Assembly: GCA_963667725.2 (NCBI GenBank)
Contig: CAXXHO010000005.1
Span: forward strand, 704,001 to 768,000
Source of the DNA: Treponemataceae bacterium
GTDB lineage: Bacteria; Spirochaetota; Spirochaetia; Treponematales; Rectinemataceae
Direction of reading: 5' to 3'
Length of the DNA stretch: 64,000 bases
Numbering within the stretch: the stretch's first letter is position 1; each line of letters starts with the position of its first letter. A program made the position numbers and the translations under genes. Below are positions 2 through 53,059 of this stretch, in pieces. The notes beneath the pieces were generated by a model. It was not told the origin of the DNA and searched no databases. It worked only from the letters and a program-made list of their open reading frames with translations.

Positions 2-808
2 ACGGCTATAGCGCGCCTTCTGCCCCTGAGCTACCAAGAACTCTACTCCACACGCTCCGCCCCAGATCTTTCGACTATGCTCTATACCGGATTCTATCCC
101 CGTATCCATGACAAGAAGCTTGATCCATCTGAGGCGATGTCCTTCTATTTTTCGACCTATGTCGAGCGGGACTTGCGGCAGATTCTTCAGGTGAAAGATT
201 TGGGCAACTTCGAGCGATTCATGCGCCTTCTGGCGGGACGCAATGGCCAGATTCTGAACGCGAGCAGCCTGGCGGGTGAATGCGGCATCAGCCATGGGAC
301 CGTGAGAGGCTGGATCAGCGTCCTTCAGCAAAGTTCTCTGGTATACCTTCTTCAGCCATACTATCGGAACCTTGGCAAGCGTCTGGTGAAGTCGCCGAAG
401 CTGTACTTCCTCGACACCGGATTGCTGTGCTGGCTTCTGAACATTTTCAGTCCCGAGCACCTGAATACCCACCCTTTGCGAGGGGCGATTTTCGAAGCTT
501 ACGTCGTCGCGGAATTCCTCAAGTCACTGTATAACCGCGGGAAGCCGGACACCCTTCTCTACTTCAGGGATCAGAAAGGACATGAGGTGGATCTGCTTTC
601 GGAAACTCAGCCAGAAACCCTTCTGTGTGAAATCAAATCATCCGCTACCTTCCATCCTGATTTTATTGCAGGGATGAACTATGTTGAAACTTTGCTGGCG
701 CAGCCGGCCCAGCCGGTCAAAAAGCGGCTTATCATGGGGTCTTTGGATGAACCTTACTGGTTCAAGGACACCCAGGTACTCAGCTATCCCAATGCGGGCG
801 ACGTGTGA
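2..808 (+). CDS. AAA+ ATPase with C-terminal DUF4143 domain (5'-truncated by window edge)
   Basis: Frame is open from position 2 (TAIARLLPLSYQEL); motifs TYVERD, KSPKLYFLDTGLL, FEAYV, EVDLL..EIKS are typical of AAA_14/DUF4143 proteins. Confidence 0.85.
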   Translation, partial: TAIARLLPLSYQELYSTRSAPDLSTMLYTGFYPRIHDKKLDPSEAMSFYFSTYVERDLRQILQVKDLGNFERFMRLLAGRNGQILNASSLAGECGISHGTVRGWISVLQQSSLVYLLQPYYRNLGKRLVKSPKLYFLDTGLLCWLLNIFSPEHLNTHPLRGAIFEAYVVAEFLKSLYNRGKPDTLLYFRDQKGHEVDLLSETQPETLLCEIKSSATFHPDFIAGMNYVETLLAQPAQPVKKRLIMGSLDEPYWFKDTQVLSYPNAGDV

Positions 809-845
809 AAAGTTAAAAATCGGGGTCAGACCCCGGTCATTAACT
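808..845. repeat. Short palindromic repeat S1 (AAAAGTTAAAAAT-CGGGGTCAGACCCCG-TTAACT)
   Basis: Hairpin AGTTAA..CGGGGTC/GACCCCG..TTAACT; overlaps the stop codons of both convergent genes. Confidence 0.85.
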
Positions 846-1390
846 GTCGAGAAGAGATGTTCTCATCGCTGATTCTTCTAGAAACAACATTTTCAGACAC
901 TCCAAAGTATTCTATGGCGGCATCTGCGATAACTCGCTTGAGATATTCAGCAGATCGCACCGTGATAACCGGATCATGCGTTTTTTGGTATGCAACCCGT
1001 TGCTCATCGAAGAAGCGGCGAAGCTCTAGCGAAGGCACAAGGAGATTGCCCGCAAAATTATTGGCTTGATACTCGAACCATTTATGGGCTTTATCTGATT
1101 TTAAGCGATGGAAATTAATATAGTCGTCGAGATCATTAAATCGTTGTTTAGGATAAAGCTCCGCATGAAGGATGATATGACTTATCTCATGAGCCATGGA
1201 AAAACGAAGGCGATTCACATAACGTTCATCCATGTATTCATACTCATCAACATGCATCGTTCGAAAGTCAAAGGCCTTCGATATCGATAGGAAATATCCT
1301 ACAACGAGCAAAACGAGATCTAAAATGCTCTACTTTGGCTTTTATCTCATCGTCCTCCATGAAGGGAGGGCAAAGATCTTCATTCGCCAT
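826..1390 (-). pseudogene. ImmA/IrrE-family metallopeptidase, frameshifted with an apparent internal deletion
   Basis: RFSMAHEISH (HExxH) and EYQANNFAGNLLVP in 826..1311; the N-terminus MANEDLCPPF...FPIDIEGL* starts at 1390 in another frame. Confidence 0.7.
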
Positions 1391-29154: not shown

Positions 29155-31410
29155 GGGGTTCCTAAAGAACCCTTTTTTCTATCTCCCAGGCAGCGCCTAA
29201 CTGCCTTTTATTCCAAAGAAATGAGTTCCAAACCAGTTCGATTATGGCATCAATAAGCGGCACAAAAAAGGCTTTCGCCTTTCTCCTTGCCACCACCATG
29301 AGATTCATTACAAGGAATACCATCATGATGGAGGTCTCACTCGTCTCTTTCAACTGACGTTGTACAGTGTGTGGTATAATACAGTAAGCAATAAAGCAGC
29401 TTAATATATTATACTGACAACAAATAACTAAAAACGGACTATACAAAAAGCATGATGCAAATGCGGTATAAGATATTTATAAATATTCGAAATAAAACTT
29501 TACAGATAAAACACTATGTTGTATAATTAGCGGTATAATGAACGTACGGAAATGTACCCTAAAGAATGCTCAAGGCGGTACCTATACGTACCTTCAACTT
29601 GTGCACAACTACCGCGTCAAGGAAACAGGAAAGACCAAAACCAATGTCCTTATGAAGCTCGGACGGGAAGATCAGATCGAGCCTTCCTACATCCAGGCGA
29701 TCATCAAGGCACTGTCTGCGGTCTTAGGCGAATATCCTTCTGAAGTCCCCGCCGGATTTGACTTCCATTCAAGTCGGGAGCTTGGGGGCACCTGGCTTCT
29801 AGATGCCCTATGGAATCGTCTTGGCATGGCAAAGGCTATCAAAGGGCTTCTTAACGAACGCCAGTTCGCCACACCCGTTGAACGGCTCTGCTTTGCCATG
29901 GTTTCAGGAAGAATACTCGCTCCGGGTTCGAAGCTTTCTCTTGAGCACTGGGTTTCAAAGAAAGCCTTTATTAAAGACCTTAACGAGGTAGACGTTCATA
30001 ATCTTTATAGGGCGATGGATCTTCTTGTGGCGTCGAACGAGGAACTCCAGAAGCAGATATTCACCGAAGTGTCGAAGAATACGCATCTCGACGTGGATCT
30101 CATCTTCCTCGATACGACGAACACCTATTTCGAGACCGATGAAGATGCTTCCAGCTCGGGACTCTTAAAACGTGGCCACAGCAAGGATGGGCACCCCGAG
30201 CTACCCTTGGTTTCGATTGCCTTTGCGGTGACGCGTAGCGGCATTCCCCTTCGCTGTTGGGTATTCCCTGGCAACACGAGCGACCAGACGATCGTCGAGC
30301 AGGTGAAAGCTGATTTAGGGCAGTGGAATCTTGGGCATGTCGTCATGGTTCAAGACGCAGGATTCAACAGTGCCGACAACCGAAGAATCCTTTTACGAGA
30401 ATGCGGTGACTATATTATCGGTGAGAAGCTTCGTGTTGGCACTGATGGCGCTGCTGTAGAAGCCCTGCACCGGAAAGGGCGATTTAGAATCCTAGAGAAC
30501 GGTCTTGCGATAAAGGATGTCGTTCTCGATGCGGGAACGGCAACGGAGCGCCGATTTATCATCGTCAAGAATCCGGAAGCCGAGACGCGCGACCGGGTCA
30601 TACGCGGACAAATTATCGACGCCACGAAACGAAAGCTTGACGAACTGTCACAGTATACGGGGAAAGCGCATACGAAAGCAGCCTGTGCGCTACGATCTCA
30701 TTCTGCCTATGGCAGATACATTAGGCAGGATACGAAGGGTGTCTTGCACCTCGACACCGCCAAGATAGCCTCAGAAGAACTCCTTGACGGCAAGTTCCTT
30801 GTGTCGACGTCCAGTATGAAGCTGGATGCTGCAGACATTGTGGCCGGCTACAAGCAACTGTGGGCTATAGAGCGAGTATTCAAGGATATGAAAAACACCT
30901 TGGATATTCGTCCCGTATACCACCGACTTGATGATCGAATTCGAAGCCATATTCTTATTTGTTGGCTTGCCATGGTACTGGTACGGTATGCAGAGAATAT
31001 AGCGGACCGGTCCTGGTACCAGATTGAAAAAGCGTTGGCTGATGTTACTGCAGGGCTTATTGAGAACGACAATGTAAGCCTCTGGTATTGCTCTGATATT
31101 TCCGACGAGGCGAAGGACATTTTCAAGCGCTTAACTATTGAATTACCAAAGAAAGTTCTTGCTACAGTAGCAAGAGATCCTGTTGCGGTATAAAAGATTT
31201 TCGACTGCAATCGTATAACTCTATTATTTATAGAGTATTAGCAAGATTTTCTATACCGCGCACTGTACAACGCCAGTTCAACTTCGTGCCAATTCGATCG
31301 AGCGTATAACATCGCTTCGCTTCTCCGAATTTGCCCCCAACTGCTATCCTTGTACTTTCATCGTGGCGTTATATTTTTCTCTACTCTCGAAGTATCTTTT
31401 TATTCTTACC
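29155..31410 (-). mobile_element. IS5-family 3' remnant split by the IS1634 insertion
   Basis: Rejoining the flanks gives VGGKFGEAKRCYTLDRIGTKL|KETSETSIMMVFLVMNL; end sequence GGGGTTCCTAAAGAA near 29155. Confidence 0.7.
29354..31276 (+). mobile_element. Complete IS1634-family element; transposase at 29538..31193
   Basis: 25-bp imperfect terminal repeats CTG(A/G)CGTTGTACAGTG(T/C)G(T/C)GGTATA; 5-bp target duplication TTCAA; DTTNTYF, GHSKD, IERVFKDMK..RPVYH. Confidence 0.92.
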
Positions 31411-33677: not shown

Positions 33678-34352
33678 TGAGACTTATCCGATTTAGTGGA
33701 GAGTCAACAACCACCACCAGAGGTGGTGGCTTGAAGATTAATGGCCTCTAAAAGAGGCCATAGTTTTTTGCGCTGTCTTCTTCCAATCTTTCGTTATCTT
33801 CTTGGTATTTCACATACCGTTAGATTTTTTCCTCATCCATCCCTATCGTTGTAACACAGTATCCCCTACTCCAGAAATGATTGCCCCAGTAAGGCTTTTT
33901 CTTCAATCCTGAGCGCCCCTTGAACAACGCTATTGCGGTTTACCTTTCAGTATTTCCATCACTTCAGGTATCGATTCTCTCGGCAGTATTGTTGCCACCA
34001 TATGCACATGATCTTTCATCACGTTTAGTTCTAATACTTCAATATCTTTCCATTCACATATCGTTCGTATTTTATCTTCCACTGCTTTTGCGACATCACC
34101 TTCCAAAATCCTATACCTATATTTGGGTGTCCATACAACGTGGTAGCTGCATTGGTAGACGACATGCGCTAGCTTTTTCCATTTCGCCATGATGTATTTT
34201 AGCCTCATGCTATCTGAAGGCATAGCCAGTCAGCACATTACCACCGCCATAGACAGTGGGTTTCGGAGGCAAACTAAATTAAGCCTATACGAAAATAAAA
34301 AGTAGGAGAGGATATGGAAACAAAAAAAAGACCTACACAGAAGAGTTCAAGC
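33678..34352 (+). mobile_element. Possible IS3-family left-end remnant interrupted by the IS200 element
   Basis: TG-starting end TGAGACTTATCCGATTTAGTGGAGAG; after the IS200 an RBS precedes a frameshifted METK..TYTEEFK OrfA-like start. Confidence 0.4.
33748..34190 (-). pseudogene. tnpA: IS200/IS605 TnpA (Y1 HUH) transposase, frameshifted with an internal stop
   Basis: YHVVWTPKYR, DHVHM, then frame change to FWSRGYCVTT..EKI*RYVKYQ; hairpins near 33709-33732 and 34240-34262. Confidence 0.85.
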
Positions 34353-36319: not shown

Positions 36320-36335
36320 ATCCTGTTATCCTGTC
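36320..36335. repeat. Isolated terminal arm of the long palindromic element
   Basis: ATCCTGTTATCCTGTC between the epimerase stop and the kinase start. Confidence 0.7.
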
Positions 36336-38747: not shown

Positions 38748-38807
38748 GACAGGATAACAGGAGGTGCGGGATTTACGGGTAAATCTTGGGGGTCCTGTTA
38801 TCCTGTC
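38748..38807 (+). repeat. Long palindromic element L1 (60 bp, minimal form)
   Basis: GACAGGATAACAGGA...TCCTGTTATCCTGTC; followed by a degenerate short palindrome at 38817-38843. Confidence 0.9.
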
Positions 38808-39057
38808 CTATTGTATAAAGTTTTAAAATGGGTTCTGCCCCATCTTGGTGTAGCGTAGTGTATTTTTTTGAATCAAAGTCAGTGGCTTTATGCGTTCTCC
38901 AGATAAAGGAGCCTCACATCATAGGCATTTTTATTATTAGAATTCTAAAGCTTGACAATACTTTGGCGAGCCCTTACCCTTCATTGTATAAGAGCCAGAG
39001 CCATAAGGGTTTATATAAACATCGCAAGGTGTCCCTTTTGGCTCTATTTTTTTCCCT

Positions 39058-39527
39058 GATGAAGTCCACCGATGAAATATATCGTTCTCAAAGCCTGTAT
39101 CGGGAACAGTATTGGATCTCTCCAAAACACCCACATTCCTGGCAAATAAGCAAAGGCTCGAAGCCTTGAAACGAACCGATTATTTTGCCGTACGCGAAGG
39201 CCGCCTGACGATGAATGGATGGAAACTCAAGCAATCGGCAATTGGAAAAGCGGCGGCAGATCTCACCGATAGCGATTTTTCACCCGATATTCAGCAAAAA
39301 GGCGTGGACATGAAAATCGGTCTCGATATCGCTTGGATCAGTTTCAACAAGATCGCGGAAAGGATTCTTGTCATTACCGAGATTCCGATTTCATCCCCGC
39401 GATTAAATTGGCGCGACGTAATGGAATTCAAGTGTATCTTTTCACGCTCGCCCATGGAGTCACCCACGAACTCACCGAACATTCGGATCGATTAGTCGTC
39501 TCAGCGATTGATTCCCATTCGATTTGA
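39058..39527 (+). pseudogene. NYN (PIN-like) domain protein, 5'-truncated and frameshifted
   Basis: QQKGVDMKIGLDIA, then a frame change to DSDFIPAIKLARRNG. Confidence 0.8.
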
Positions 39528-39723
39528 TTCCATAGCTTCGCCCTCCAGCCGTGTGGCTGGATCCTCCAAAAACAGAGGTTTTGGCGCCGTTGCGCATCGA
39601 TCGCGGCCGGAACACGCTGATCGTTCGCTCTACGGTTCAATGTTCAGTCTTTGAACATTCTATGAACAGTATCGGCATGACGCAAGGGCTGGCACAAAAA
39701 TATTTTATGTTTCAGGTGGGGAG

Positions 39724-39838
39724 GACGGGATAACGGGATGAGCAGGATTTACGGGAAAAGGATTTAGGTAAAGAGATGAAATTTCGATTCTTTACCTTAA
39801 ATCTTACATGTCGATCCTGGAGGTCCTGTTATCCTGTC
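39724..39838 (+). repeat. Long palindromic element L2 (115 bp)
   Basis: GACGGGATAACGGGA..GCAGGATTTACGGG..GGTCCTGTTATCCTGTC; short palindrome abuts at 39840-39874. Confidence 0.9.
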
Positions 39839-39930
39839 TAAAAATTTAAAAAATAGAGGTCTGACCCATTTTTCGACTTCTTTGCGCGAAAAATATGTAC
39901 ATTACTGAACAATAGTGTATAGTAAAGCCG

Positions 39931-40551
39931 ATGAAATTCAATGAAATCGTGCGATTATTCGCGGACCGGGCCTGGTTTGACTTCGAGATGGTCCACCTTA
40001 TCTCGGGCGAAGCCTCGGCCTGCGTGCATACGGAACTGTACCGATGGCGGGAATCGGGCAAACTGATCGAACTGCGGCGAGGCCTATTCGCCCTGGCCGA
40101 ACCCTGGAGACATTCGCCCGTCGATGGAGCCTGCCTGGCCGAAGCCCTGTACCCGCCCTCCTACCTATCGGGAACCTGGGCCCTGCGGCGCTATGGACTG
40201 CTTCGCGGCCCGGAAGGCGGCCGCCCGGAGTTCGACTCCGTGACGGCGCGCCCCGCCAAGACCTTCGAAAACACCTTTGGCCGCTATACCTACACCACCT
40301 TCCCCCGCGACCTCCTCTTTGGCACCAAAACCGAGCTGATTGACGGGAAAAGAGTACGGATAACCCTCCCCGAGAAAGCCCTTCTGGACTACTGGTTCAT
40401 CGAAGGCGGGGACTGGGACGAAGAGCGGATAAAGAACGCGGGATTGAGTCGCGGGCCGCTGGATAGGGATAGGATGGAGGCGATGGCGGCGCGCGCGGGC
40501 CGGCCACGGCTCGCGCGCGCCACCGGAGCCTTCCTGAGGGCAGCCCTATGA
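39931..40551 (+). CDS. AbiEi-like type IV antitoxin / transcriptional regulator
   Basis: RWRESGKLIELRRGLF, PSYLSGTWALRRYGL, F.NTFGRY.Y, PEKALLDY. Confidence 0.7.
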   Translation: MKFNEIVRLFADRAWFDFEMVHLISGEASACVHTELYRWRESGKLIELRRGLFALAEPWRHSPVDGACLAEALYPPSYLSGTWALRRYGLLRGPEGGRPEFDSVTARPAKTFENTFGRYTYTTFPRDLLFGTKTELIDGKRVRITLPEKALLDYWFIEGGDWDEERIKNAGLSRGPLDRDRMEAMAARAGRPRLARATGAFLRAAL

Positions 40552-41024
40552 TACGAGAAGAAATCCTCGAGATAGCCGATAAAGCCGAAACGCCTGAAGA
40601 AAAACTTTGCGCGATACGAGCATGCATCCAAGCCGCGGCGCTCCGCTCGCTGCACGAACTGGGAGCCTTCGAAAAACTCTGCCTGACCGGAGAAAGCGCC
40701 CGCCACTTCGCCACCGGAACGCCAGACTACATAACCGACCTCGAATTCAGCCTCGTGGACAAGAAAGGTTACAAACCCGAACAGTGGCTCTTCGCGGTCA
40801 AGCGCCGCCTGCGCTTCATGGGACTCGATCCCCGCATCGCCTTCGCGAGGAAAGCATCCATCCACGCAGGCTGGGTGAAAGTGACCGGCCTCCTCGCCGA
40901 AGAAGTCGGCTTCAGGATCACCATCAATATCGCCCCGATAGAACCCGCGCTGTGCACCGTGAAACTCGTGGACATGGCGGGAGAGTATTTTGGCATTCGG
41001 TATGTAACTTCCTGTCGGTCCTGA
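40548..41024 (+). pseudogene. AbiEii-like nucleotidyltransferase toxin, short and degenerate
   Basis: ATGA overlap with the AbiEi-like gene; GESARHF..DYITDLEFSL resembles GGTALR..SEDLDFS; stop lies inside a repeat arm. Confidence 0.55.
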
Positions 41025-41042
41025 GGGTCCTGTTATCCTGTC
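41009..41042 (+). repeat. Isolated right arm of the long element
   Basis: TTCCTGTCGGTCCTGAGGGTCCTGTTATCCTGTC. Confidence 0.85.
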
Positions 41043-41063
41043 TTTATAGTTATTCCCTTAAGC

Positions 41064-41187
41064 GACAGGATAACAGGAGAAGCAGGATTTACGGAAGAAA
41101 GATTTAGGTAAAGAGAAGATAAGAAGGAAAGAGGATTCTTTAATAAAAGCTTATTCCTGTAGGTCCTGACGGTCCTGTTATCCTGTC
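41064..41187 (+). repeat. Long palindromic element L3 (124 bp)
   Basis: Same termini and core; short palindrome variant abuts at 41189-41216. Confidence 0.92.
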
Positions 41188-41257
41188 TAAAAGTTAAAAA
41201 ACAGGGTTTGATCCCGAATCCGCGAAGTGGTGGCTTTGTGCCACCTTGTCTCGGACT

Positions 41258-42508
41258 TCAACCTAACAGGTAAGCGACATGCACAGCGGTTATGTTGTGC
41301 GCAATTTCTTTCGTATCGGGATCGTTTGAGAGAATGAAACTGTGAAGAAGGGGCTTGTCGAGAAAAGCGTCCAAACCTTTGAGATGACGCGCATCGACCG
41401 CGGCAACCCGAGAAGAAAGCTTTATTTCGAAAGCGAGATATCCCTGCGGCAACTCGATGAGGAGATCCACCTCCCGCCCATCCACCGTTCTCAAGTAGTA
41501 GAAACGCGCATCGGAAAAACTACAGCGTGCCTGCTTGTACAGTTCAGAGACAACAAGACTTTCAAACTCGAAACCCGTGAGACCGCCTCGCTTCCGCGCT
41601 ACCGCCTGTAAAACACCATTATCGAGACAATGGATCTTCGGAGCCTTGACCAGCCGCTTGTTTTCATTTCCGAACCAAGCGGGAAGAACAAGCGCCTGAT
41701 AACTCAACTCAAGATACCGAAGGTACCGTTGTACCGTTTTTACCGATACGCCTACCTCTCGCGCTATCGTTGAACTATTCAAAATCGTGCCCGTCTGCAA
41801 TGCTACATACTGCTGAAGCTTGACGAATGGCTCGAGGTCCCTGAACGAAGCCAGGTCCCTGACATCCCGTTCCAGATAGGTTCGGACATACTGCGTGAGC
41901 CAGTGAAAGCGATCCTCGTCGGAGAGGCTTGGATCGGTGAGCGCCGGATAGCCTCCGAACCGGATATAGTGATCCCAGGCTTTCTGTTTAATCGCCTGTC
42001 GCTTGTCGAAAAGAAAACTTGGCAGAAGAGGCGGAATAGTGTCGGGGGCAGAAAGACAGGCTTGAAAAATGGAATCTGGCACAGGATCATCCCATCCTCC
42101 GGTTTCGAGCTCAGGGACGGTCAAGGGCAAGAGATCGATTATCGTGCAGCGTCCGGCAAGGCTTTCTTTCACCTTTTCGAGAAGCAACAACTGGCTTGAC
42201 CCTAAAAGCACGTAACGCGGTTCCTGCCATTGGTCATAGACTGATTTTACACTCTCAATGAGACGAGGCTCCTTCTGAACCTCATCCAAAATCGCCAAAG
42301 GATACAGCGTGTTCCACTGCGCGGCGGTTAACCGGGCATACTGGACACGAAGGACCGGATCCTCAATCGACAAATATTCATAGCCTGGGAAGAGCATACG
42401 CGCCAGGGTAGACTTGCCAGTCTGCCGGGCTCCCGTGAAGACCATTATCCGGCCACCGGGCTTTTGGGATTGCTCCCTGATATAGTCGGCTATCTTACGA
42501 TTCTTCAT
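41258..42508 (-). CDS. AAA+ ATPase / DUF4143 protein
   Basis: Walker A GARQTGKS, Walker B ILDEVQ, GGYP, TYLERD, EVDLL..FEIK. Confidence 0.9.
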   Translation of the reverse strand: MKNRKIADYIREQSQKPGGRIMVFTGARQTGKSTLARMLFPGYEYLSIEDPVLRVQYARLTAAQWNTLYPLAILDEVQKEPRLIESVKSVYDQWQEPRYVLLGSSQLLLLEKVKESLAGRCTIIDLLPLTVPELETGGWDDPVPDSIFQACLSAPDTIPPLLPSFLFDKRQAIKQKAWDHYIRFGGYPALTDPSLSDEDRFHWLTQYVRTYLERDVRDLASFRDLEPFVKLQQYVALQTGTILNSSTIAREVGVSVKTVQRYLRYLELSYQALVLPAWFGNENKRLVKAPKIHCLDNGVLQAVARKRGGLTGFEFESLVVSELYKQARCSFSDARFYYLRTVDGREVDLLIELPQGYLAFEIKLSSRVAAVDARHLKGLDAFLDKPLLHSFILSNDPDTKEIAHNITAVHVAYLLG

Positions 42509-42514
42509 ACCAAT

Positions 42515-42543
42515 AGTTTCGTATATTTCGGACTTGATGTCCA
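42515..42543 (-). promoter_or_regulatory. Putative sigma70 promoter, leaderless
   Basis: TGGACA-17-GAAACT-6nt-ATG. Confidence 0.4.
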
Positions 42544-42568
42544 GTATATGGCGTATTTTTAGGATATA

Positions 42569-42693
42569 GACAGGATAACAAGATGGGGCAGGATTTACGG
42601 AAGAAGGATTTAGGTAAAGAGAAGATAAGAAGGAAAGGGGATTCTTTAATAAAAGCTTTTTCCTGTCGGTCCTGGGGGTCCTGTTATCCTGTC
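42569..42693 (+). repeat. Long palindromic element L4 (125 bp)
   Basis: Same termini and core. Confidence 0.92.
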
Positions 42694-42697
42694 TTAT

Positions 42698-43906
42698 TTA
42701 CTCAAGACACAGCAGGAACTGCCTGATGTTCATATGACGTATGCCATTCCTGCTCCGATCCACCTCGTCCATCGTCACCACGTATTTTGGATAGTTGTCG
42801 GGAATCGTTTCCAGCACGGAAAATTCCCTTTCGATAGTGTCATCGCTTGCCAGAAGGTAGGCTACCTGCACGTACAGCTTTTCGTTTCCTTTTTTTGCCG
42901 AAAAATCCACCTCGGCTTGAGCGCTTTTCCCTATCGTCACTTCATAGCCATTCCTGAGCAGTTCCATATAGACGATATTTTCCAGGGTCTGATTGATATC
43001 TCTCTGGTTATTGCCGTAGAGGGCTTCGCGTATGCCATGATCGGTCAGGTAGATTTTTTCCTGAAAACTCAAAAGTCTCTTGCCGATCAAATCCTCTCTG
43101 GGCACGAGGTGAAGCAGGCAGGCTTCCTGGCAATAACGGATATAGTTATAGAGCGTTTCGCTCGACAGACTTCGTTTTTCGTTTTTAAGGTACTGAACTA
43201 CCGAAGCGGACGAGAAGGTGTTCCCGACATTGGCGATGAAAAATAGTATCAGGCGCTTCAGCTGGTCGATATCGCGAATTCTGTTTCGCTGCGCGATGTC
43301 CTTGAGGATTATGGAATCGAAGATGTCGCTTAAATATTGCCGCGCCGATGCCGCGTCGAAAGAATGCCGATATAGAAATGGCATTCCGCCCATGACAAGA
43401 TAGCGCGTAAAGACATCAGCCTGGTCTATGGGCATCTTTTCTTCCTCGTAACAGTCCAGTACCTCCCTGAAGGAAAAAGGATATACCTTGATCTCGACAT
43501 ACCTGCCCCCCAGGTAGGTGGCCAACTCGCCGGACAGCATCTTCGCGTTTGAGCCGGTGATGAATATGTCGATATCGAAATCGATCATGCAGGAGTTGAC
43601 GAGCTTTTCCCACCCTTCAAGCTCCTGGACCTCATCCAGGAACAGATATAGCTTCCCTTTTTTGCCTTCCGCCGATGCTTTGATATGGGAATAGGTCAAA
43701 TCGCGGCTTCCAACGTAAGGCTCGACATTGGATTCAAAATTAATGGAAAGCATCCGCGACGGGTCTATACCTTTTTGCAAAAGGTCTTGCCGAATGAGTT
43801 CCAGCAAGACGGTTTTGCCGCATCGTCGCATCCCCGTAAGCACTTTTACGACAGGGGTGTCGATAAAGGGACGAATTTTCTTCAGGTAGGTTTCTCTTCG
43901 TATCAT
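42698..43906 (-). CDS. AAA+ ATPase / DUF4143 protein
   Basis: Start MIRRETYL at 43906; GMRRCGKT, FLDEVQ, ITGSNA, LENIVYMEL, EVDF. Confidence 0.9.
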   Translation of the reverse strand: MIRRETYLKKIRPFIDTPVVKVLTGMRRCGKTVLLELIRQDLLQKGIDPSRMLSINFESNVEPYVGSRDLTYSHIKASAEGKKGKLYLFLDEVQELEGWEKLVNSCMIDFDIDIFITGSNAKMLSGELATYLGGRYVEIKVYPFSFREVLDCYEEEKMPIDQADVFTRYLVMGGMPFLYRHSFDAASARQYLSDIFDSIILKDIAQRNRIRDIDQLKRLILFFIANVGNTFSSASVVQYLKNEKRSLSSETLYNYIRYCQEACLLHLVPREDLIGKRLLSFQEKIYLTDHGIREALYGNNQRDINQTLENIVYMELLRNGYEVTIGKSAQAEVDFSAKKGNEKLYVQVAYLLASDDTIEREFSVLETIPDNYPKYVVTMDEVDRSRNGIRHMNIRQFLLCLE

Positions 43907-43913
43907 ATGGTGA

Positions 43914-43942
43914 AGTATAAACCGACTATATCGAAAATGCAA
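43914..43942 (-). promoter_or_regulatory. Putative sigma70 promoter, leaderless
   Basis: TTGCAT-17-TATACT-7nt-ATG. Confidence 0.6.
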
Positions 43943-43983
43943 TGGGATTAATGATATAGATTTCGTTATATCGAAATATATAG

Positions 43984-44143
43984 GACAGGATAACAGGATG
44001 GGGCAGGATTTACGGGAGAAGGATTTAGGTAACAAGATATACGCTCTTTTCTTATCTCTTTACCATATCGTATTCTTTCTTCTCTTCTCTTCTCTTTCCC
44101 AAAAACTCTTTCCTGTTAGTCCTGCTGGTCCTGTTATCCTGTC
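43984..44143 (+). repeat. Long palindromic element L5 (160 bp)
   Basis: Same termini, pyrimidine-rich core; 4 mismatches to L6. Confidence 0.92.
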
Positions 44144-44154
44144 CTATTTTATGT

Positions 44155-45336
44155 TTAATAAGCAAAGCCCAAAAGCCATAGAGGAATTGCCTTCCCGGCG
44201 GGATAGTCCATATCGTCGCGGATTACGAAGTCGGCCTGTTTAAAATTTTTTGAATGTCCGCCCACCTCTATCCTGTATTTCCTCGTCCCTCCAGAACCTG
44301 CCGCCTCGGAGATTACGAAATCGGCTTCCGTTTCATTCCTTGCGGCTTCGACCTTCCATCCCGCGCCGGAGCAGAGCGCGGTAACCAAGGCTTCGCGCGC
44401 GGTTCCCCTGTCCCCATTCAGCGCCGAATACAAGGCCGGATCGGAGAAGAACATTTTCTCGCCGACAGATTTCGCCTTCGTGTCGTTTTCGACGCGAACG
44501 ATACGGAGCACCCCCACGGATTCCATGACCTCCAGCAGCTGATAAAGCTTGTCGCTGCCGACACCCCAGTCGGCGCAGAGCGATCTCACCTGGAGACGCG
44601 GAATGGCTGCGTTTCCCAGCGTGCCCACAATCGCCTTCATAAGGCGGAGATTGCCATCGGTGATCCCCGGGAGGAAAAAAGGCACATCCGAATAGAGTGT
44701 CTTATCCAGAACGGCAAGGAGTCGATCCTGAAAGTCTCCCTCGCCGTAGAAAGGCCGGGTGCCTATGCGACGGTACTTCTGGAAAGCGTCGAGCAGGGCT
44801 GGCGTCGGCGCCAATGGAAGCGCTTGAGCTGGCGAAAAAGGATCTAGTCGTGGATAAAGAATCCCTGTCTCCAAAGACAGGAATTCCCTGAATGAAAGAA
44901 GAGGCATCTGGATCGGCAGGTAGCGACGGGAAAGATCTCCCACGGCGCTTCGCAGCACGAGCGAAGAAGAATCGCTAATCCAGATCGAATGCGAAGGGAA
45001 GTCATCATACAATGCCTTGACGTGAAGGCTCCACTCTTTCGCGAAATGGACTTCATCGATGATGACGCCTTCATAGCCGATTAAAAAAATGCCTTTAACG
45101 AGATCATAGAGGCTAATCCCCGCGATGATGGGATTGTCCGCCGAAAGGTAGAGAATTCGCTTTTTATTGATATGGTACAGCAGAAACGTGGTTTTACCGA
45201 CGCCTCTGGGGCCCGTGAGCACCACCGCGCGGGGAAGCGGGGGCTGCTCCACCGTGAAGGGTCGCATCACCGCAGGCATGGCCGCGTGGCGCCGCTGCAT
45301 GGCTGTCTCCAAGTCCACGACATATTTATTGTCCAT
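44155..45336 (-). CDS. AAA+ ATPase (AAA_14-like) protein
   Basis: GPRGVGKT, IIDEVH, DLSRR, EADF..IEVGG, IPLWLLGF. Confidence 0.88.
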   Translation of the reverse strand: MDNKYVVDLETAMQRRHAAMPAVMRPFTVEQPPLPRAVVLTGPRGVGKTTFLLYHINKKRILYLSADNPIIAGISLYDLVKGIFLIGYEGVIIDEVHFAKEWSLHVKALYDDFPSHSIWISDSSSLVLRSAVGDLSRRYLPIQMPLLSFREFLSLETGILYPRLDPFSPAQALPLAPTPALLDAFQKYRRIGTRPFYGEGDFQDRLLAVLDKTLYSDVPFFLPGITDGNLRLMKAIVGTLGNAAIPRLQVRSLCADWGVGSDKLYQLLEVMESVGVLRIVRVENDTKAKSVGEKMFFSDPALYSALNGDRGTAREALVTALCSGAGWKVEAARNETEADFVISEAAGSGGTRKYRIEVGGHSKNFKQADFVIRDDMDYPAGKAIPLWLLGFAY

Positions 45337-45342
45337 AGCTGA

Positions 45343-45371
45343 AGCATACAGCAATATCGTTCTTACGACAA
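45343..45371 (-). promoter_or_regulatory. Putative sigma70 promoter, leaderless
   Basis: TTGTCG-17-TATGCT-6nt-ATG. Confidence 0.55.
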
Positions 45372-45417
45372 GTACATATTATAATATTTGTACCTGCTGT
45401 GGATACGTTACCAATAA

Positions 45418-45577
45418 GACAGGATAACAGGATGGGGCAGGATTTACGGGAGAAGGATTTAGGTAAAAAGATATACGCTCTTTTCTTATCTCTTTACCAT
45501 ATCGTATTCTTTCTTCTCTTCTCTTCTCTTTACCAAAAACTCTTTCCTGTAGGTCCTGCTGGTCCTGTTATCCTGTC
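45418..45577 (+). repeat. Long palindromic element L6 (160 bp)
   Basis: Near-identical to L5. Confidence 0.92.
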
Positions 45578-46425
45578 TTTATTGCTATTCCCCGAATACC
45601 CGATTCGACCAGGTAAAGAGGTAGGGAAATGAGCGTGAAGGGCTTGCTCGATTTGCCCGCGATCGCGGTACTGGTAGATAGAATGGAAGGCAAGTCCGTA
45701 TTGAACCTGAGGGCTAGGTCAACCTCTTTTTCCTGGACGAACATATGAAGCGACCTGAGACGCCCCGTGGCTCCGGCTTTTACTTCCACGGGCAGAACTC
45801 GGTTTTCTTTTTGAATGAGAAAATCCACCTCCGCCGTTGAACCTTTGGCGGGGCGATTCCAATAGTAAAGATGAGGTTCGGCATACCCAGGCTGAGCATA
45901 CAGAAGATGCTGACCGATAAACTGCTCCGCGAAAGCCCCGGAGTTCACCATCGCGAAGTTTTCCGCCTGGCCTAGCTCTTGGGGTTTCAGTCCTGATAAC
46001 GACAAGGCCAATCCGATGTCCAGAAACAGCAGCTTGAAAGAACTTGCTTCCGCTTCCGCGCCCAAGGGAAGTCCGTTGCCGTGGCTGTGCATGACTGGAT
46101 AGATTAGTCGGGCTTTTTGCAGCAGATCCAGGCATTCTTTTATTTCCCGTGACTTTACTTGGCGGTTCAACGCCGAGTATTTGATCGTTTTTCCAAGTTG
46201 ACCGGGTATTTTTATAAAAAGATCCTGCGGAAGCCCGATATTGGCCCTTTTCTTGTACTTGCCGAAGTCGAGAAAAAAAGTCTGCAGAATGGCGTTTTGC
46301 TCCTGCCACGCCCTTGAAACATCCAGACCCGACTCGATATAGTCCTTCAACTCGGCCTTACCGGGGGTTTCGTCAAAGTTGGTCTCAACGTAGGTTTCGA
46401 ATTCCCGCGCGGCGAATATGCGCAA
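45568..46425 (-). pseudogene. AAA+/DUF4143 paralogue lacking Walker A and B (in-frame deletion)
   Basis: Aligns to the 48109 gene but lacks the N-terminus and ~138 internal aa; retains EVDF..PVEVK. Confidence 0.75.
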
Positions 46426-46478
46426 TGGCTATTGTATACTAAATTTTTGTCCACTTTTGTATATTTTTATAGGTTTAG

Positions 46479-46602
46479 GACAGGATAACAGGAGAAGCAG
46501 GATTTACGGGAAATGGATTTAGGTAAAGAGAAGATAAGAAGGAAAGAGGATTCTTTACTAAAAGCTTTTTCCTGTAGATCCTGAGGGTCCTGTTATCCTG
46601 TC
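46479..46602 (+). repeat. Long palindromic element L7 (124 bp)
   Basis: Same termini and core. Confidence 0.92.
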
Positions 46603-47889
46603 GAGTATAGAAAGCGCATAGAGAGGAATGTTTGTCAGCCAGCGCTCTTCACGGTACGCGGAGAGCGAGGTTCTGAAGCAGCGTGGAGGAGAAAACTTTT
46701 CATTATAGACCCGAAGGCTCTTGGCCTGCAGGTTTTCGGCAGCCTTCACCTCAAGTGGATAGATGGAATCTTGGCCTTGGATCAGGAAGTCGACCTCAGC
46801 CCTCGAAGTGTCGCTGGACCAGTATGAAGCGTCCATTTCTTCCATAAGGCGTAATTCCTGCGCGACATATTGTTCGGTCAGCGCTCCCTTGAATTCTTCA
46901 AAAAGAGCGTTCCCATGCAATACCGTTTGTATCGGCAGGCCAGAATGTGCCGCCAACAGCCCGATATCAAGCATGTAAAGCTTGAACGCGTTGAGTTCCT
47001 GATATGCCTTAAGAGGGAGCCCCGGTTTCGATACTCTAAAGGTTTTGCGCGATAATCCCGCATCGCAAAGCCACTCGATCGCGCTTTCGTATTCTCTTGC
47101 CCTGGCGCCTTCACGAATGAGACCGTACATGAACTTTTTCTGCTCCCGCGCCAATTGAGCCGGCAAGGAATTCCACACCGCCCGAATTCGAGGAACCGTG
47201 TCCGATTTCGCATATTTGGAAAAATCCCGTTCATAAGCTTCAAGCAGTTCTTTCTGGAAGGTACGAACCTGGCCAAGATCCTTCGTCGCCACAAAGGTTG
47301 CCACGCTTTCCGGCATGCCGCCAACGCAATAGTAATATCGCAGGAATTCGATCAGTTTCTCCCTGAACGCATCGATCATCGGCCAATCACTTGATGAAAC
47401 GAGATCCGCCAGCGCGGATTCGCCAATGGCTTTTAAAAATTCCAAGAAAGAAAGAGGATAAAGGTTTAAAAAGTCGACTTTGCCCACGGGAAAAGAATTC
47501 TCCGCATGCAACGAGATTCCCAAGAGCGATCCTGCCGCCACAAGATGATACTGGGGAGCATTCTCATAAAAATACTTGAGCGACGTGAGCGCCTTTGGGT
47601 TTTCCTGGACTTCATCGAAGATGATGAGCGTCTTTTCGGGTTCAATAGGCAGGCCGGTCTCAATACGCAAGCCCATGAGTAGACGCTCAGGATCCACGTT
47701 GGATGAAAAAAGCGTCGCCATTCGCTCATTGGACTCAAAATTTATATAGGCGACGTTTTGGTATGCCCTTTTGCCGAATTCTTTCAGCAGCCATGTTTTG
47801 CCGACTTGGCGGGCACCGTTTAGAACGAGAGGCTTTCTGCGCTTATCGCTTCGCCACGCCAGCAAGTCAGCAAGGGCTTTTCTTTCCAT
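46558..47889 (-). CDS. AAA+ ATPase / DUF4143 protein
   Basis: Start MERKAL at 47889; GARQVGKT, IFDEVQ, AAGSLLG, GGMPE, EVDF..PLEVK; C-terminus reads into L7. Confidence 0.9.
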   Translation of the reverse strand: MERKALADLLAWRSDKRRKPLVLNGARQVGKTWLLKEFGKRAYQNVAYINFESNERMATLFSSNVDPERLLMGLRIETGLPIEPEKTLIIFDEVQENPKALTSLKYFYENAPQYHLVAAGSLLGISLHAENSFPVGKVDFLNLYPLSFLEFLKAIGESALADLVSSSDWPMIDAFREKLIEFLRYYYCVGGMPESVATFVATKDLGQVRTFQKELLEAYERDFSKYAKSDTVPRIRAVWNSLPAQLAREQKKFMYGLIREGARAREYESAIEWLCDAGLSRKTFRVSKPGLPLKAYQELNAFKLYMLDIGLLAAHSGLPIQTVLHGNALFEEFKGALTEQYVAQELRLMEEMDASYWSSDTSRAEVDFLIQGQDSIYPLEVKAAENLQAKSLRVYNEKFSPPRCFRTSLSAYREERWLTNIPLYALSILDRITGPSGSTGKSF

Positions 47890-47896
47890 AGATACA

Positions 47897-47925
47897 AGTG
47901 TATTCGTTGTCATCACAAAAGTGAA
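47897..47925 (-). promoter_or_regulatory. Putative sigma70 promoter, leaderless
   Basis: TTCACT-17-TACACT-7nt-ATG. Confidence 0.5.
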
Positions 47926-47985
47926 GCCTGTTTTGTGCAGTATAATCACATAAGTCTTACAAGTTTTGTGTTTGTCTCGCTAAGA

Positions 47986-48102
47986 GACAGGATAACAGGA
48001 TGGGGCAGGATTAACGGGAGAAGGATTTAGGTAAAGAGAAGAGAATTCAATTCTTTACCTATAGCTTTTTCCTGTCGGTCCTGAAGGTCCTGTTATCCTG
48101 TC
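47986..48102 (+). repeat. Long palindromic element L8 (117 bp)
   Basis: Same termini; short palindrome AAAAGTTAACAAATGGGGTCCGACCCCGG abuts at 48104-48132. Confidence 0.92.
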
Positions 48103-48108
48103 CAAAAG

Positions 48109-49519
48109 TTAACAAATGGGGTCCGACCCCGGCCGCAGGAGCCTTTCGGCTTGTTCCACGAGGTATAAGGGGAGTGAGAGAAGCTTAAAGGGCTGAGGTT
48201 TTTTCCCCGCGATCGATGTTGTGGACTCAAGGCATGAAGGCAGATCGTCATTGAAGCGCAAACCCAAGGAAGCGTTCTTCTCCTGTATGAACACCTGGAG
48301 CGACCTGAGCCGGCCCGTCTTGCCTGCCTTGACTTCGACAGGAACGGCAAGGCTTCCCGCCTGGATGAGATAATCCACCTCGGCGGTGGAACCCTTGCTC
48401 TGTCGGTTCCAGTAAAAAAGGGAAGGCTCGTGATAGAACCCATTCCGATACAGAAGATGCTGGCCGATGAACTGCTCCGCCATGGCGCCGGAATTGACAA
48501 GCGTCATATCCTTATCACGCGGTAAGTCGGCCGCGTTCAGACCGAGAAAAGACGCCAGGAGACCAATATCCAGAAAAACCAGCTTAAAGGAGGAAGGATG
48601 GATTTCGGCGCCAAGGGGAATCCCATTTCCATCTGAATGAAAAACCCTAAACACGAGGCGCGCCTTCTCTAATAGATCAAGACTCTCTCTCACCTGGATC
48701 GACCGAGCGAGAGGATTGAGACTCGAGTATTTCGCCGTCTTGCCAATCGTCGCGGGAATGTTCTTGAAGACCGCCTGCAGCATCGGTACATCGACCTTTC
48801 GCTTATATTTGCTGAAATCGGCATAATAGGTGAGCAAAAGGCTACTCTGCGCGCGTGCCGCGGCTTTCATGTCGAGATCCGATTCTATGAAAGCCTTGAC
48901 AACCCCCGGCAAGCCCCCTACCAGGAAATATTCCCTCAAGAAGGCTCGCGCCTTGGCATGAAGCGCTTCGGGCAGGCTTTGAGAAATTCGATACATGGAA
49001 AGATACTCACGCAACTGTTCCTGCCCGCGAGCCAGGAGAAATTCCTCGAAACTCATTGGCCCCAGATACATGAACTCGATTCTTCCGACGGGAACGGAGT
49101 ATTCCGGCGCGCCGAGAGAGAAATCCAAGAGGGAGCCAGCGGCGATAACATGGAGTTCCGGCATCTTTTCGTAAAAATAGCGGAGCTTGGCCAGTACGGC
49201 GGGCGCTCCTTGAATTTCATCGAGGAAGAGAAGGGTTTCCCCCGGGACAATCTTCTTTGAAGCATCGGCTTCGATAAGCCGCACGATGGTCCGGACATCA
49301 GGCTCGTCGAAAAGGCTCGCCTTCTCGGGATTTTCATCGAAATTGATCTCCACGATCGAATCGAATGCCTGTCGCGCGAAAATCCGCACGAGTTCCGTTT
49401 TTCCGACCTGCCGCGCGCCGCGTATGACGAGAGGTTTTCTGTCTCAGGCGCCAGGCGCCAGGTTTTCTGTCGGGTCTCAGGCGCCACTGCGCGAGGAAAT
49501 CGAGAGCAAAGCGTTTCAT
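48109..49519 (-). pseudogene. AAA+ ATPase / DUF4143 protein disrupted by a 28-bp insertion near the 5' end
   Basis: Removing 49432-49459 restores MKRFALDFLAQWRLRPDRKP-LVIRGARQVGKT in frame with FLDEIQ..EVDY..PVEVK. Confidence 0.85.
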
Positions 49520-49526
49520 AATGTTG

Positions 49527-49555
49527 ATTATACAATATTTACCTAGTATTTTCAA
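49527..49555 (-). promoter_or_regulatory. Putative sigma70 promoter, leaderless
   Basis: TTGAAA-17-TATAAT-7nt-ATG. Confidence 0.7.
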
Positions 49556-49588
49556 CAATTATTGCTATTATTATAGGATATAATAGCA

Positions 49589-49712
49589 GACAGGATAACA
49601 GGAGAAGCAGGATTTACGGAAATAGGATTTAGGTAAAGAGAAGATAAGAAAGAAAGGGAATTCTTTAATAAATGCTTTTTCCTGTAGGTCCTGGGGGTCC
49701 TGTTATCCTGTC
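49589..49712 (+). repeat. Long palindromic element L9 (124 bp)
   Basis: Same termini and core. Confidence 0.92.
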
Positions 49713-49718
49713 CTATCG

Positions 49719-50111
49719 CTAGGGCGCCTTCTTGGGCGCGGGGGCATAGTCCCTATACTTGCGTTTGAAGTTTATGTCCTGGGGCCCGAAGTTGATGATG
49801 AGGCCCGTGGGCGTATTGGTGGCTTTTAAGTAATTCACGAGCTGTATCTCATGGACTTTATTGATGGCTTCCACAGCCTTGAGTTCCAGGATGACCTGAC
49901 CATTAACGATAACGTCGGCAAAGAAAAAACCGATCATCGATCCTTCGTAATACACCTCGATCGGCGCTTCGATGATGAAGGGCAGCTTGGCTTTATGCAG
50001 TTCTATGGCCATCGCCTGCTTATAGACCGATTCCAGGAAGCCCGCGCCGAGGGTGTTGTATACCGTAAAGGCACAACCGATGATTTTTTCCGTGAGGGGA
50101 TCTTCCACCAT
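49719..50111 (-). CDS. GxxExxY protein (PD-(D/E)XK nuclease superfamily)
   Basis: 130 aa; GFLESVY = GxxExxY; ADVIV..ILELKAV, QLVNYL, GLIINFG. Confidence 0.92.
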   Translation of the reverse strand: MVEDPLTEKIIGCAFTVYNTLGAGFLESVYKQAMAIELHKAKLPFIIEAPIEVYYEGSMIGFFFADVIVNGQVILELKAVEAINKVHEIQLVNYLKATNTPTGLIINFGPQDINFKRKYRDYAPAPKKAP

Positions 50112-50152
50112 ACCTTTATCGCGCGCGGGGTGGGGGCTTTTGATTCAATGTG

Positions 50153-50276
50153 GACAGGATAACGGGATGAGCAGGATTTACGGAAGAAGGATTTAGGTAA
50201 AGAGAAGATAAGAAGGAAAGACGATTTTTTAATAAAAGCTTTTTCCTGTAGGTCCTGAAGGTCCTGGTATCCTGTC
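50153..50276 (+). repeat. Long palindromic element L10 (124 bp)
   Basis: Same termini and core. Confidence 0.92.
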
Positions 50277-50308: not shown

Positions 50309-51601
50309 ATGCCCACTATTCAAACCTATACGGCTATCATCATTGGAGCGGGGCCGTCGGGCCTCTTCGCCGCCATTCGACTCGCCGAAGCCATCGGCGG
50401 CGGCGAGGGCATCCTCGTTCTCGAGCGCCGCGAGAAACCCGCCCGCAAGCTGCTTCTCTCAGGGTCAGGCCAGTGCAACCTCACCCACGCGGGGGAAATA
50501 GCCGACTTCCTCGGCCACTACGGCGGCGGACCGAAGGCCGAATCGGCCGCACGCTTCCTAAAACCCGCCCTCTACGCCTTCACTAACGAGGAACTCCTCG
50601 CCTGGTTTGGCGCCCGGGGCATCGAATTCGAGACCGAGGATTCGGGCAAAGTCTTCCCCGCCGACCGCCGCGCCACTTCCGTTCTCAAGATTCTCCAGGA
50701 CGAAGCCTATCGCCTGGGCGTGCGCATAGCGGCGAACAGCCGCGTCAGCGGCATAAGCGTCTCAGAGGGCTTTCTCGTACGGGTGGAAGCGGTGACCGCC
50801 GATGCTCCGGCTGCTCCGGAGCCCGCCGAATATCGCGCCCCGATTGTCCTGATCGCCACGGGAGGCTTGTCCTACCCCAAAACCGGCAGCACGGGTGACG
50901 GCTACGCGCTCGCGGCCTCCTTGGGACATCGCGTCGTCCCGCCCAGGCCGGCTCTCGCGCCCGTTTACGTCCGGAACTTCGCCCTCAATCCTCTCGCTGG
51001 GCTTTCCTTCCATGACGCGGGCCTTTCGGTGCTTCGCGAGGGCAAGCGGGTCTTTTCCGCTGAAGGCGACCTTCTCATAACTCACGAAGGCCTCTCGGGA
51101 CCTCTCATCCTCGACGCGTCGCGCCATATCGCGCCGGGCGACAGTCTCGAGGTCAATTTTGTCGATGTTGCTATCGAGGAATTCCGGAACCGCCTGGACG
51201 CCGAGCTCAAAGCCAATCCCCGGCGCCTGGTCCGCACGGCCCTCGCCGATCTCGGCCTGGCCAAAAACATGGCTGAACTATTCTGCGACCTTTCGGGCAT
51301 AACCAAGGAAGAAACCGCGGCGGCCCTTCCCCGCGCCAAGAGGGAAGCGCTCTGCCGCTTCGCCTGCGCCCATCCCTTCTTCGTGGCTCGCCTCGGCACG
51401 CTTGAGGTGGCCATGGTCACCGCGGGAGGCGTCGATCTCGCCGAGGTGAATCCCGGCAGCATGGAGTCGCGCATCGTCCCCGGCCTCTTCTTCGCGGGCG
51501 AGGTCCTCGACATCGACGGCGACACTGGCGGCTATAATCTCCAGGCCGCCTTCTCGACCGGCTCCCTCGCGGCCAAGAGTATGGCTATGAGAAAGAATTA
51601 G
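50309..51601 (+). CDS. HI0933/YhiN-family NAD(P)/FAD-dependent oxidoreductase
   Basis: GAGPSG, KLLLSGSGQCNLT, ATGGLSYPKTGSTGDG, VTAGGV, GDTGGYNLQAA. Confidence 0.92.
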   Translation: MPTIQTYTAIIIGAGPSGLFAAIRLAEAIGGGEGILVLERREKPARKLLLSGSGQCNLTHAGEIADFLGHYGGGPKAESAARFLKPALYAFTNEELLAWFGARGIEFETEDSGKVFPADRRATSVLKILQDEAYRLGVRIAANSRVSGISVSEGFLVRVEAVTADAPAAPEPAEYRAPIVLIATGGLSYPKTGSTGDGYALAASLGHRVVPPRPALAPVYVRNFALNPLAGLSFHDAGLSVLREGKRVFSAEGDLLITHEGLSGPLILDASRHIAPGDSLEVNFVDVAIEEFRNRLDAELKANPRRLVRTALADLGLAKNMAELFCDLSGITKEETAAALPRAKREALCRFACAHPFFVARLGTLEVAMVTAGGVDLAEVNPGSMESRIVPGLFFAGEVLDIDGDTGGYNLQAAFSTGSLAAKSMAMRKN

Positions 51602-51748
51602 ACATGATCACATGATTGATCATGATCGACGGGAAAGAAGAATAGGTTAAAGAAAGATCTTCTATTTCTTTTTTCTCTTTCTCTCTTTCTTTCTTTCTTT
51701 AATAAAATCTTTTTCCTGTAGATCCTCCCCAGTCCCGTAGATCCTGTC
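51601..51748 (+). repeat. Degenerate long element L11
   Basis: GACATGATCACATGAT...TTTTCCTGTAGATCCT..CCCGTAGATCCTGTC. Confidence 0.7.
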
Positions 51749-51781: not shown

Positions 51782-51825
51782 CGAAAAGTTAAAAATTGGG
51801 GTCTGACCCCTTTTTTTAACTTTCG
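51782..51825. repeat. Short palindromic repeat, most symmetric copy
   Basis: CGAAAAGTTAAAAATTGGGGTCTGACCCCTTTTTTTAACTTTCG; contains the mtnA stop codon. Confidence 0.85.
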
Positions 51826-52900: not shown

Positions 52901-53059
52901 GACAGGATAACAGGAAAGACCAGGATTGACAGGAAAGAGAAGAAAAGATTTTGGGTAAAGAAAGAGAGAAGAAAAAATTGGCTGTGTCCATGTAATACTA
53001 AATCTTCTCTTTACCCTATTCATAGTCTTGTTCATCCTCTCTTGCCTGTTGATCCTGTC
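52901..53059. repeat. Diverged long element L12
   Basis: GACAGGATAACAGGAAAGACCAGGATTGACAGGA...CCTGTTGATCCTGTC. Confidence 0.8.

Follow-up and report, generated by a model that had tools for sequence, protein, structure and literature searches.

Integrons and the clusters of attC sites lacking integron-integrases (CALINs) carry defence-rich arrays of mostly single-gene units, which lie between co-oriented hairpins and vary in order, and the pdif sites that bound gene modules on Acinetobacter plasmids are 28 bp long. Here we describe an array of this general appearance in a Treponemataceae bacterium (assembly GCA_963667725.2, contig CAXXHO010000005.1). The window is the full 64,000-nt stretch that was analysed, and the array under study occupies 38748..50276, where ten copies of a palindromic hairpin element (L1-L10) separate nine units holding NYN, an AbiE pair, six AAA_14/DUF4143 genes (AAA1-AAA6) and a GxxExxY gene. 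The hairpins are real and the ten copies bound exchangeable units. We propose that these repeats, built of the arms that flank GxxExxY genes elsewhere, are sites of unit exchange, and that the folded hairpin is likely a target for cutting by the GxxExxY protein, after which host repair would exchange DNA between copies, a proposal for which we judge the case evenly balanced. Integrase-free gene swapping of this form is apparently undescribed so far, and our search (subscription literature being mostly outside it and supplements excluded) found no published account of the arm-GxxExxY link or of such arrays.

The ten full copies listed in an earlier note on this DNA, 60-160 bp long and all in a single orientation, were confirmed at their mapped coordinates (Table 1). 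The 15-mer of the element occurs 23 times in the window with up to two mismatches, against a mean of 0.07 and a maximum of 1 in shuffled sequences, its ends read GACAGGAT...ATCCTGTC, and the seven copies tested for hairpin folding on the + strand gave DNA z-scores of -5.2 to -9.7. The earlier list did not include a half copy, a degenerate copy (L11), an inverted copy, the single arm at 36321, a repeat family of the terminal inverted repeat (TIR) type or the origin of the element from GxxExxY arms. The half element at 41009-41042, together with the spacer that follows it, is likely the scar of a deleted unit. A genome-wide profile, suggested in the same note, recovered 45 copies that are clustered and not evenly spread (37 have another copy within 3 kb), and 13 of the 20 AAA-like loci in the genome lie within 300 bp of a copy. 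Aligned to each other, L2, L4, L8 and L10 present all four combinations of left-arm and centre types, and the likeness of left arms is 0.89 and 0.83 inside arrays as opposed to 0.75 between arrays. Stop codons fall inside the element in four of the nine cases measured and within 12 nt of it in four more. The TIR-type repeat, AAAAGTTAAAAA...GGGGTCWGACCCC (core GGGGTCWGACCCC), is a family separate from the hairpin and has 33 arms genome-wide.

The case for exchange is carried by the edges of the units in relatives (three-digit labels denote genomes or contigs, L1-L11 element copies). The window, L103 and L153 share the 5' junction of AAA4 to the base, with neighbours that differ in all three; the window and L103 also agree exactly in the 3' junction, and in L153 the 3' end adjoins an element with a small duplication. 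A 92%-identical AAA6 in G156 has both edges at elements and a next unit different from that of the window, while in L019 the GxxExxY unit (edge offsets 0/0) has other neighbours than here and the AAA3 unit, with edges within a few bases of ours, stands beside other units. On contig C4 the order is AAA6-AAA5, the reverse of the window, again with edges at elements, and all four ends of the C4/C6 AAA5 block lie 0 nt from element edges. HI0933 follows the right end of L10 in the window, in G001 and at two loci of G002, the left neighbour being a different one in each of the four; in two of these alleles just 8-9 nt of that end are left. One G002 allele is missing the whole AAA array. AbiE is joined directly to the L10 right end before HI0933 in one allele of G002, and in its counterpart this place is taken by ABC-transporter, regulatory and hydrolase genes spanning about 12 kb. 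A second locus, at C5:676.7-678.1 kb and with flanks 92-93% identical, exists as three alleles that differ in cargo; the AAA genes among it share no more than 26% identity, and homology ends in or at an element at five of six ends, one of the breaks lying in the hairpin centre.

Exchange is also visible within the elements themselves. In the near-identical strain L100, which keeps the order from AAA1 to HI0933 and whose units differ by 0.14-0.48%, the ends of L6 match the window but its centre is of the 117-bp L8 type instead of the L5 type. L100 also has a tract of 5.2% divergence, in which mismatches set in 33 nt beyond L9 and which ends inside HI0933. Among the 12 homologue rows of at least 80% identity, the automatic call placed an element at the 3' end in nine, a TIR in two and nothing in one, this last showing by eye an element one base short; at the 5' end there were four elements, one TIR, two contig ends and five rows with none, two of the five being the AAA4 rows of L103 and L153, which have elements by eye. 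Arrays of similar kind with other cargo orders are present in G123, G061, G014 and G005. Taken from such sequence comparisons, repeat-bounded unit exchange in close relatives is well supported. The earlier note had likened the element to an integron-type recombination or insertion site that shuffles cargo; gains, losses and order changes do break at or in the element, but an integron-like site-specific reaction and excised circles are conjectural.

Some of the compared assemblies hold more than one version of a locus. In G000, one island is partly present in two versions, at C4:60-104 kb and C6:1-36 kb, whose blocks are 93-99% identical but whose unit order differs, and since the assembly has 6% contamination the two may stem from two strains. 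This island has an array-specific element subtype and a second GxxExxY gene at C4:77202-77522. A comparison of C4 with the window speaks against elements moving unaltered together with their genes, as arms bordering the same gene are 0.70-0.87 alike, mostly under the within-array means, and this possibility was rejected. G002 has two versions of the AbiE-HI0933 locus (C3, C6) and two of the second swap locus (C6, C11), and this assembly (6% contamination) likely mixes two strains. In runs X5 and X6 a joint or loose end at 38807 places the ugd 3' end after an L1-like element, so some strains may have an element on either side of ugd. Joints in X5, X7, X11 and X12 (e.g., 41001->42564, 43978->46477, 49713->38865, 38807->37394) were not counted as evidence of circles or deletions, because most of them have short sides that lie in repeat sequence and would fit a circle, a deletion or another element allele. 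The AAA1, AAA4 and GxxExxY stretches are uncovered in X11.

The arms of the element recur around GxxExxY genes. Relatives of this gene were collected from GTDB genomes (the best 80 of 316 retrieved), giving 74 loci with both flanks, in which a left arm stands upstream and its complement downstream, with GACAGGAT ends identical to those of the window element. An arm lies within 250 nt of the gene at 71 of these 74 loci compared with 17 of 270 control windows; by layout, 44 genes are enclosed (left arm-gene-right arm), 19 have separate hairpins, eight have one arm and three none. Arm-flanked GxxExxY genes were found in Planctomycetota, Verrucomicrobiota, Acidobacteriota, Bacteroidota, Calditrichota, methanogenic archaea and others, with the CAGAT arm class occurring in five phyla, and mapping the three arm classes onto the protein tree takes 6 changes as opposed to 19.4 in shuffles (0 of 200 shuffles were as low). 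Judged by its sequence, the window element is the gene-less form of the arms around GxxExxY, i.e., two arms with a short filler replacing the gene. As the element derives from these arms, the GxxExxY unit is the candidate enzyme and more than cargo.

The properties of the predicted protein are compatible with such a role. The window GxxExxY scores 138.6 bits against TIGR04256 (cut-off 35), is assigned to PDDEXK_3 and keeps the PD-(D/E)XK-type residues E27, D66, E76 and K78; in 38 GxxExxY sequences G24, E27, Y30, E76 and K78 are invariant and D66 is conserved in at least 90%. Foldseek places its predicted model (pLDDT 89.9) nearest to SSO0001, a member of the Cas4 family, and to lambda-type exonucleases, and a PDB sequence-profile search returned 0 matches. 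The family is very large (7990 of 7998 scored candidates at E 0.001), and the function of PF13366 is entered as 'Unknown' in PMC3424549. Six spirochaete genomes (L023, L025, L034, L041, L091, L122) have an arm-enclosed GxxExxY within polysaccharide-type operons, often before the same downstream gene, and the L019 contig, labelled Shapirobacteria and possibly mis-binned, combines a 95%-identical GxxExxY with window-like units.

We postulate that the hairpin would be extruded on single-stranded or supercoiled DNA and then nicked or cut by its cognate GxxExxY. Repair against a neighbouring copy would convert the element centre or delete the intervening unit, which might leave as a circle carrying a single hybrid element. 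An incoming unit bounded by elements would, when used for repair, become inserted, and end-joining would trim the flanks until the element meets a stop codon or promoter, while selection for candidate defence genes would maintain the array. Two kinds of joint are found. In the first, copies have exchanged DNA with each other, as in the converted centres and swapped units; in the second, represented by the half copies and the 8-9-nt remnants, an element is broken on one side and continues into unrelated DNA. Given these one-ended breaks inside the element, a cut at the hairpin is needed, and the conserved gene for a nuclease-fold protein, with clades that follow the arm types, might be its simplest source, on which our opinion is equally divided. 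The hairpins are likely recombination joints that the predicted GxxExxY nuclease would prime, and the array is best read as a hot-spot system with loose edges, unlike a recombinase system with a fixed crossover.

A number of observations weigh against this reading. According to the earlier note, relatives with the same gene order and elements absent or varying would point to an ordinary miniature inverted-repeat transposable element (MITE) or repetitive extragenic palindrome (REP), and part of that pattern is seen: G020 has AAA5-AAA6 in window order with TIR repeats at the junctions, and among 28 homologue rows at 60-80% identity no repeat was found at the 3' end of 15 and at the 5' end of 14. 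In several homologues the unit edges are displaced by as much as 26 nt, changes of the NYN unit in G002 and X12 disregard L1, and elements also stand beside core-type genes such as HI0933 and the mtnA-like gene. The arm patterns were set post hoc, after the loci had been viewed, and the protein tree is a quick tree of 122 columns in which the Prevotella arm class is also a kin group. A GxxExxY match is present in 18 of 30 genomes with the arm word and in 42 of 121 without it, kin among them not being independent, and the draft assemblies of G005 (25 arm matches) and G014 (23) have no GxxExxY match. Contigs of X2 and X3, probably from the source sample and thus not independent, hold no element joint or circle, though contigs drop rare forms. 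With respect to L1, the element lies inside a TIR pair in G020 and is missing in G002, and the AAA5 frame of G020 ends in a TIR repeat, so that the repeat trims gene ends.

The main rival is that GxxExxY only makes or spreads the hairpins, and that host RecA alone shuffles units between copies of about 120 bp that are 85-90% alike, as has been proposed for the ~100-bp promoter early stem-loops (PeSLs) of phages (PMC2839356). The comparative evidence for exchange at elements fits this passive recombination just as well, and the greater likeness of left arms within arrays and the existence of repeat-rich genomes without a GxxExxY match speak for it. However, 8-9-nt arm remnants, half elements on gene ends and a centre break onto unrelated DNA are not products of homologous crossover; such joints need a break at the hairpin, although host hairpin nucleases could supply one too, and on the whole we find the passive alternative unlikely but worth keeping in sight. 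The shuffling could instead be driven by an HUH (RAYT/TIRYT) system belonging to the co-resident TIR repeats, with the GAC hairpins as hitchhikers. A TIR arm adjoins L2, L3 and L8 and seven of the 45 copies genome-wide, G020 bounds the same genes with TIRs, the spacers of element doublets in L102 and L103 resemble TIR remnants, and Y1 genes are present in the genome; we nevertheless regard this as improbable, for the other 38 elements have no adjoining TIR arm, the AAA4 and L10 junctions are without TIRs, and the arms match GxxExxY loci.

Decoration by an ordinary MITE or REP, with elements occupying the intergenic space of an island of defence and polysaccharide genes that are moved by some other route, would account for the flanked core-type genes (HI0933, mtnA-like), the short intergenic gaps and the distant AAA homologues that frequently are without repeats. 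It is largely refuted by the junction comparisons, i.e., same-base junctions beside different neighbours, swaps between two element copies and arm remnants at breakpoints, to which are added the strong clustering of copies and the lack of a 3-5-nt target-site duplication in all 34 enclosed elements (a 2-nt one was seen in 5 of 34; right ends were called by regular expression and are imprecise in some rows), and we rate it as rather improbable. Likewise, no duplication is evident at the flanks of the window elements, and the empty L11 site in G002 gives no clean footprint. That the hairpins are maintained for a function in RNA, be it termination, processing or the stability of transcripts between units, with recombination as a side effect, has in its favour that strong hairpins stand at gene ends and that stops frequently fall inside them. 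We hold it to be very improbable, as the better-folding strand is non-coding in six of 11 arrays, coding in four and mixed in one, scoring for intrinsic terminators picks out none of the ten elements, and Rfam has no family at gathering score for them (four weak chance matches). Promoter and terminator counts across the region are at chance level, and the sole promoter-like match in the ten elements, a weak 9-of-12 one inside L2, is at chance level for the region. The least credible explanation, and to us an extremely improbable one, is an atypical CALIN whose attC-like hairpins are served in trans. The array does look like one gene per unit and, while the window has no integron integrase gene, as noted before, three such genes elsewhere in the genome pass the TIGR02249 cut-off. 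Against this, a simple regular expression for RYYYAAC...GTTRRRY boxes at the hairpin base found R-box pairs in 0 of 10 elements, upholding the view that the element is of a different class from the integron; attC-like pairs number 0 in the array versus 17 in the 46 kb beside the C5 intI that served as reference, the folding strand is not fixed relative to the cargo, and at least one unit, AAA6, carries its own sigma70-like promoter site (11 of 12, at 49555-49527). A fixed folding strand of the attC kind was rejected, and the nuclease-primed hot spot is our preferred reading.

The cargo named in the earlier note held up through domain, PADLOC and orthologue matches, the NYN identity of unit 1 being established via an intact orthologue. 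Six open reading frames carry AAA_14 and/or DUF4143, and all six match the PADLOC models of PDC-S01, AAA3 weakly. PDC-S01 is a candidate defence type, an ATPase fused to a PD-(D/E)XK domain, and is reported as the fourth most common defence type across prokaryotes, with most such candidates awaiting validation (PMC12988326). The AAA paralogues, too divergent for recent tandem duplicates according to the earlier note, have 19-34% identity where BLAST aligns them, apart from AAA4/AAA6, which share 57%. Single-unit counterparts in other genera reach 84-94% DNA identity, and as the paralogues are mutually divergent, the units were likely gathered singly, judging from these identities, without local duplication. 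Three units are broken (NYN, AAA4 and AAA6). The AbiEii-like gene (40548-41024) encodes 158 aa compared with a 270-position model, a similar short form exists in L106, and AbiE frequently stands at the head of such arrays. As regards the TIR-type family, L102:8911-9336 and L103 hold element doublets and a triplet in tandem, with a repeated 21-23-nt TIR-like spacer between them. Upstream of the sugar-nucleotide genes there are a DDE transposase gene and a broken IS200-type Y1 gene (window 29538-31193 and 33802-34223).

Table 1 Features of the hairpin array and its surroundings (window coordinates)
Feature	Position	Strand	Remarks
Single element arm	36321
L1 hairpin, short (60 bp)	38748..38807	+	12 nt from ugd start
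Unit 1, broken NYN gene	38808..39723	+	~167-nt deletion and frameshift relative to intact 207-aa L004 orthologue
L2 hairpin	39724..39838	+	TIR arm directly after
Unit 2, AbiEi (206 aa) and short AbiEii-like (158 aa)	39931..41024	+	PADLOC matches; AbiEii stop inside half element
Right-half element	41009..41042	+	joined to AbiEii 3' end; 21-nt spacer, then L3
L3 hairpin	41064..41187	+	TIR arm after
AAA1, AAA_14+DUF4143 (PDC-S01)	41258..42508	-
L4 hairpin	42569..42693	+
AAA2 (PDC-S01)	42698..43906	-	stop 5 nt from L4; start read from sequence
L5 hairpin, 160 bp	43984..44143	+
AAA3 (AAA_14; weak PDC-S01)	44155..45336	-	start read from sequence
L6 hairpin	45418..45577	+	centre of L5 type
AAA4	45568..46425	-	internal deletions (420 + 113 nt relative to L103); stop inside L6
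L7 hairpin	46479..46602	+
AAA5 (PDC-S01)	46558..47889	-	stop inside L7; start read from sequence
L8 hairpin	47986..48102	+	TIR arm after
AAA6 unit	48109..49555	-	N-terminus split over two frames; 28 nt longer than L100 unit
L9 hairpin	49589..49712	+
GxxExxY (TIGR04256, PF13366), PD-(D/E)XK fold, 130 aa	49719..50111	-	candidate cognate nuclease
L10 hairpin	50153..50276	+
Degenerate eleventh copy (L11)	51600..51747	+	after HI0933; missing in G002
TIR-type palindrome	51783..51825		missing in G002
Degenerate inverted copy	52901..53059	-	near 5' end of mtnA-like (IF-2B family) gene
TIR-type repeats in window	807-849, 1900-1942, 2322-2364, 39841, 41189, 48104, 51783-51825

The array offers the GxxExxY family a concrete candidate substrate and a testable role. 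If the proposed mechanism is true, it would explain how single-gene defence candidates such as PDC-S01 accumulate and move across genera without an integrase, and even with a passive enzyme the hairpins would flag ready-made arrays in which new defence genes can be found.

In relation to integrons and CALINs, the likeness lies in mostly single-gene, defence-rich units between co-oriented hairpins and in their changing order; here, however, there are no attC R boxes, no fixed bottom strand and no local integrase, and the edges are loose and gene orientation mixed. In the pdif modules of Acinetobacter plasmids, genes are likewise described as grouped between recurring sites without a recombinase of their own next to them, but their short XerC/XerD sites are unrelated in size and structure to the hairpins of this array. 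A MITE would share the terminal inverted repeats around a non-coding body, whereas a target-site duplication was not found; the ends of the element recur at GxxExxY loci. The REP/REPIN systems with their RAYT enzymes, and TIR-TIRYT, resemble this one in having an enzyme gene between inverted repeats, gene-less hairpin dimers or clusters, and a repeat type tied to the enzyme clade (PMC3733652). The co-variation of repeat and enzyme that marks REPIN-RAYT is found here with a different enzyme, so that the array works like such a system; the enzyme there is an HUH tyrosine transposase and here has a PD-(D/E)XK fold, the GTAG/CGTC tag and GGGGWSAS motif are not in the arms, and the elements are 60-200 bp long and bound exchangeable gene units. 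PeSL shuffling in T4-type phages (PMC2839356) shares co-oriented ~100-bp repeats around single accessory genes, the deletion and insertion of units, and chimeric repeats. The repeat there combines a sigma70 promoter and a terminator, while here it is one long palindrome, and circles have been demonstrated for PeSLs; here the setting is a bacterial chromosome and there is a cognate nuclease gene family. We therefore suggest, more tentatively than for the hairpin cut itself, that this may be a class of gene-capture array in its own right, the third after integrons and Xer/pdif modules, in which a 130-aa predicted PD-(D/E)XK nuclease would recognise its own arms, spread gene-less copies of them and reshuffle defence genes between genera via cut-and-repair joints, its arm-gene pairs extending across many bacterial phyla and archaea.

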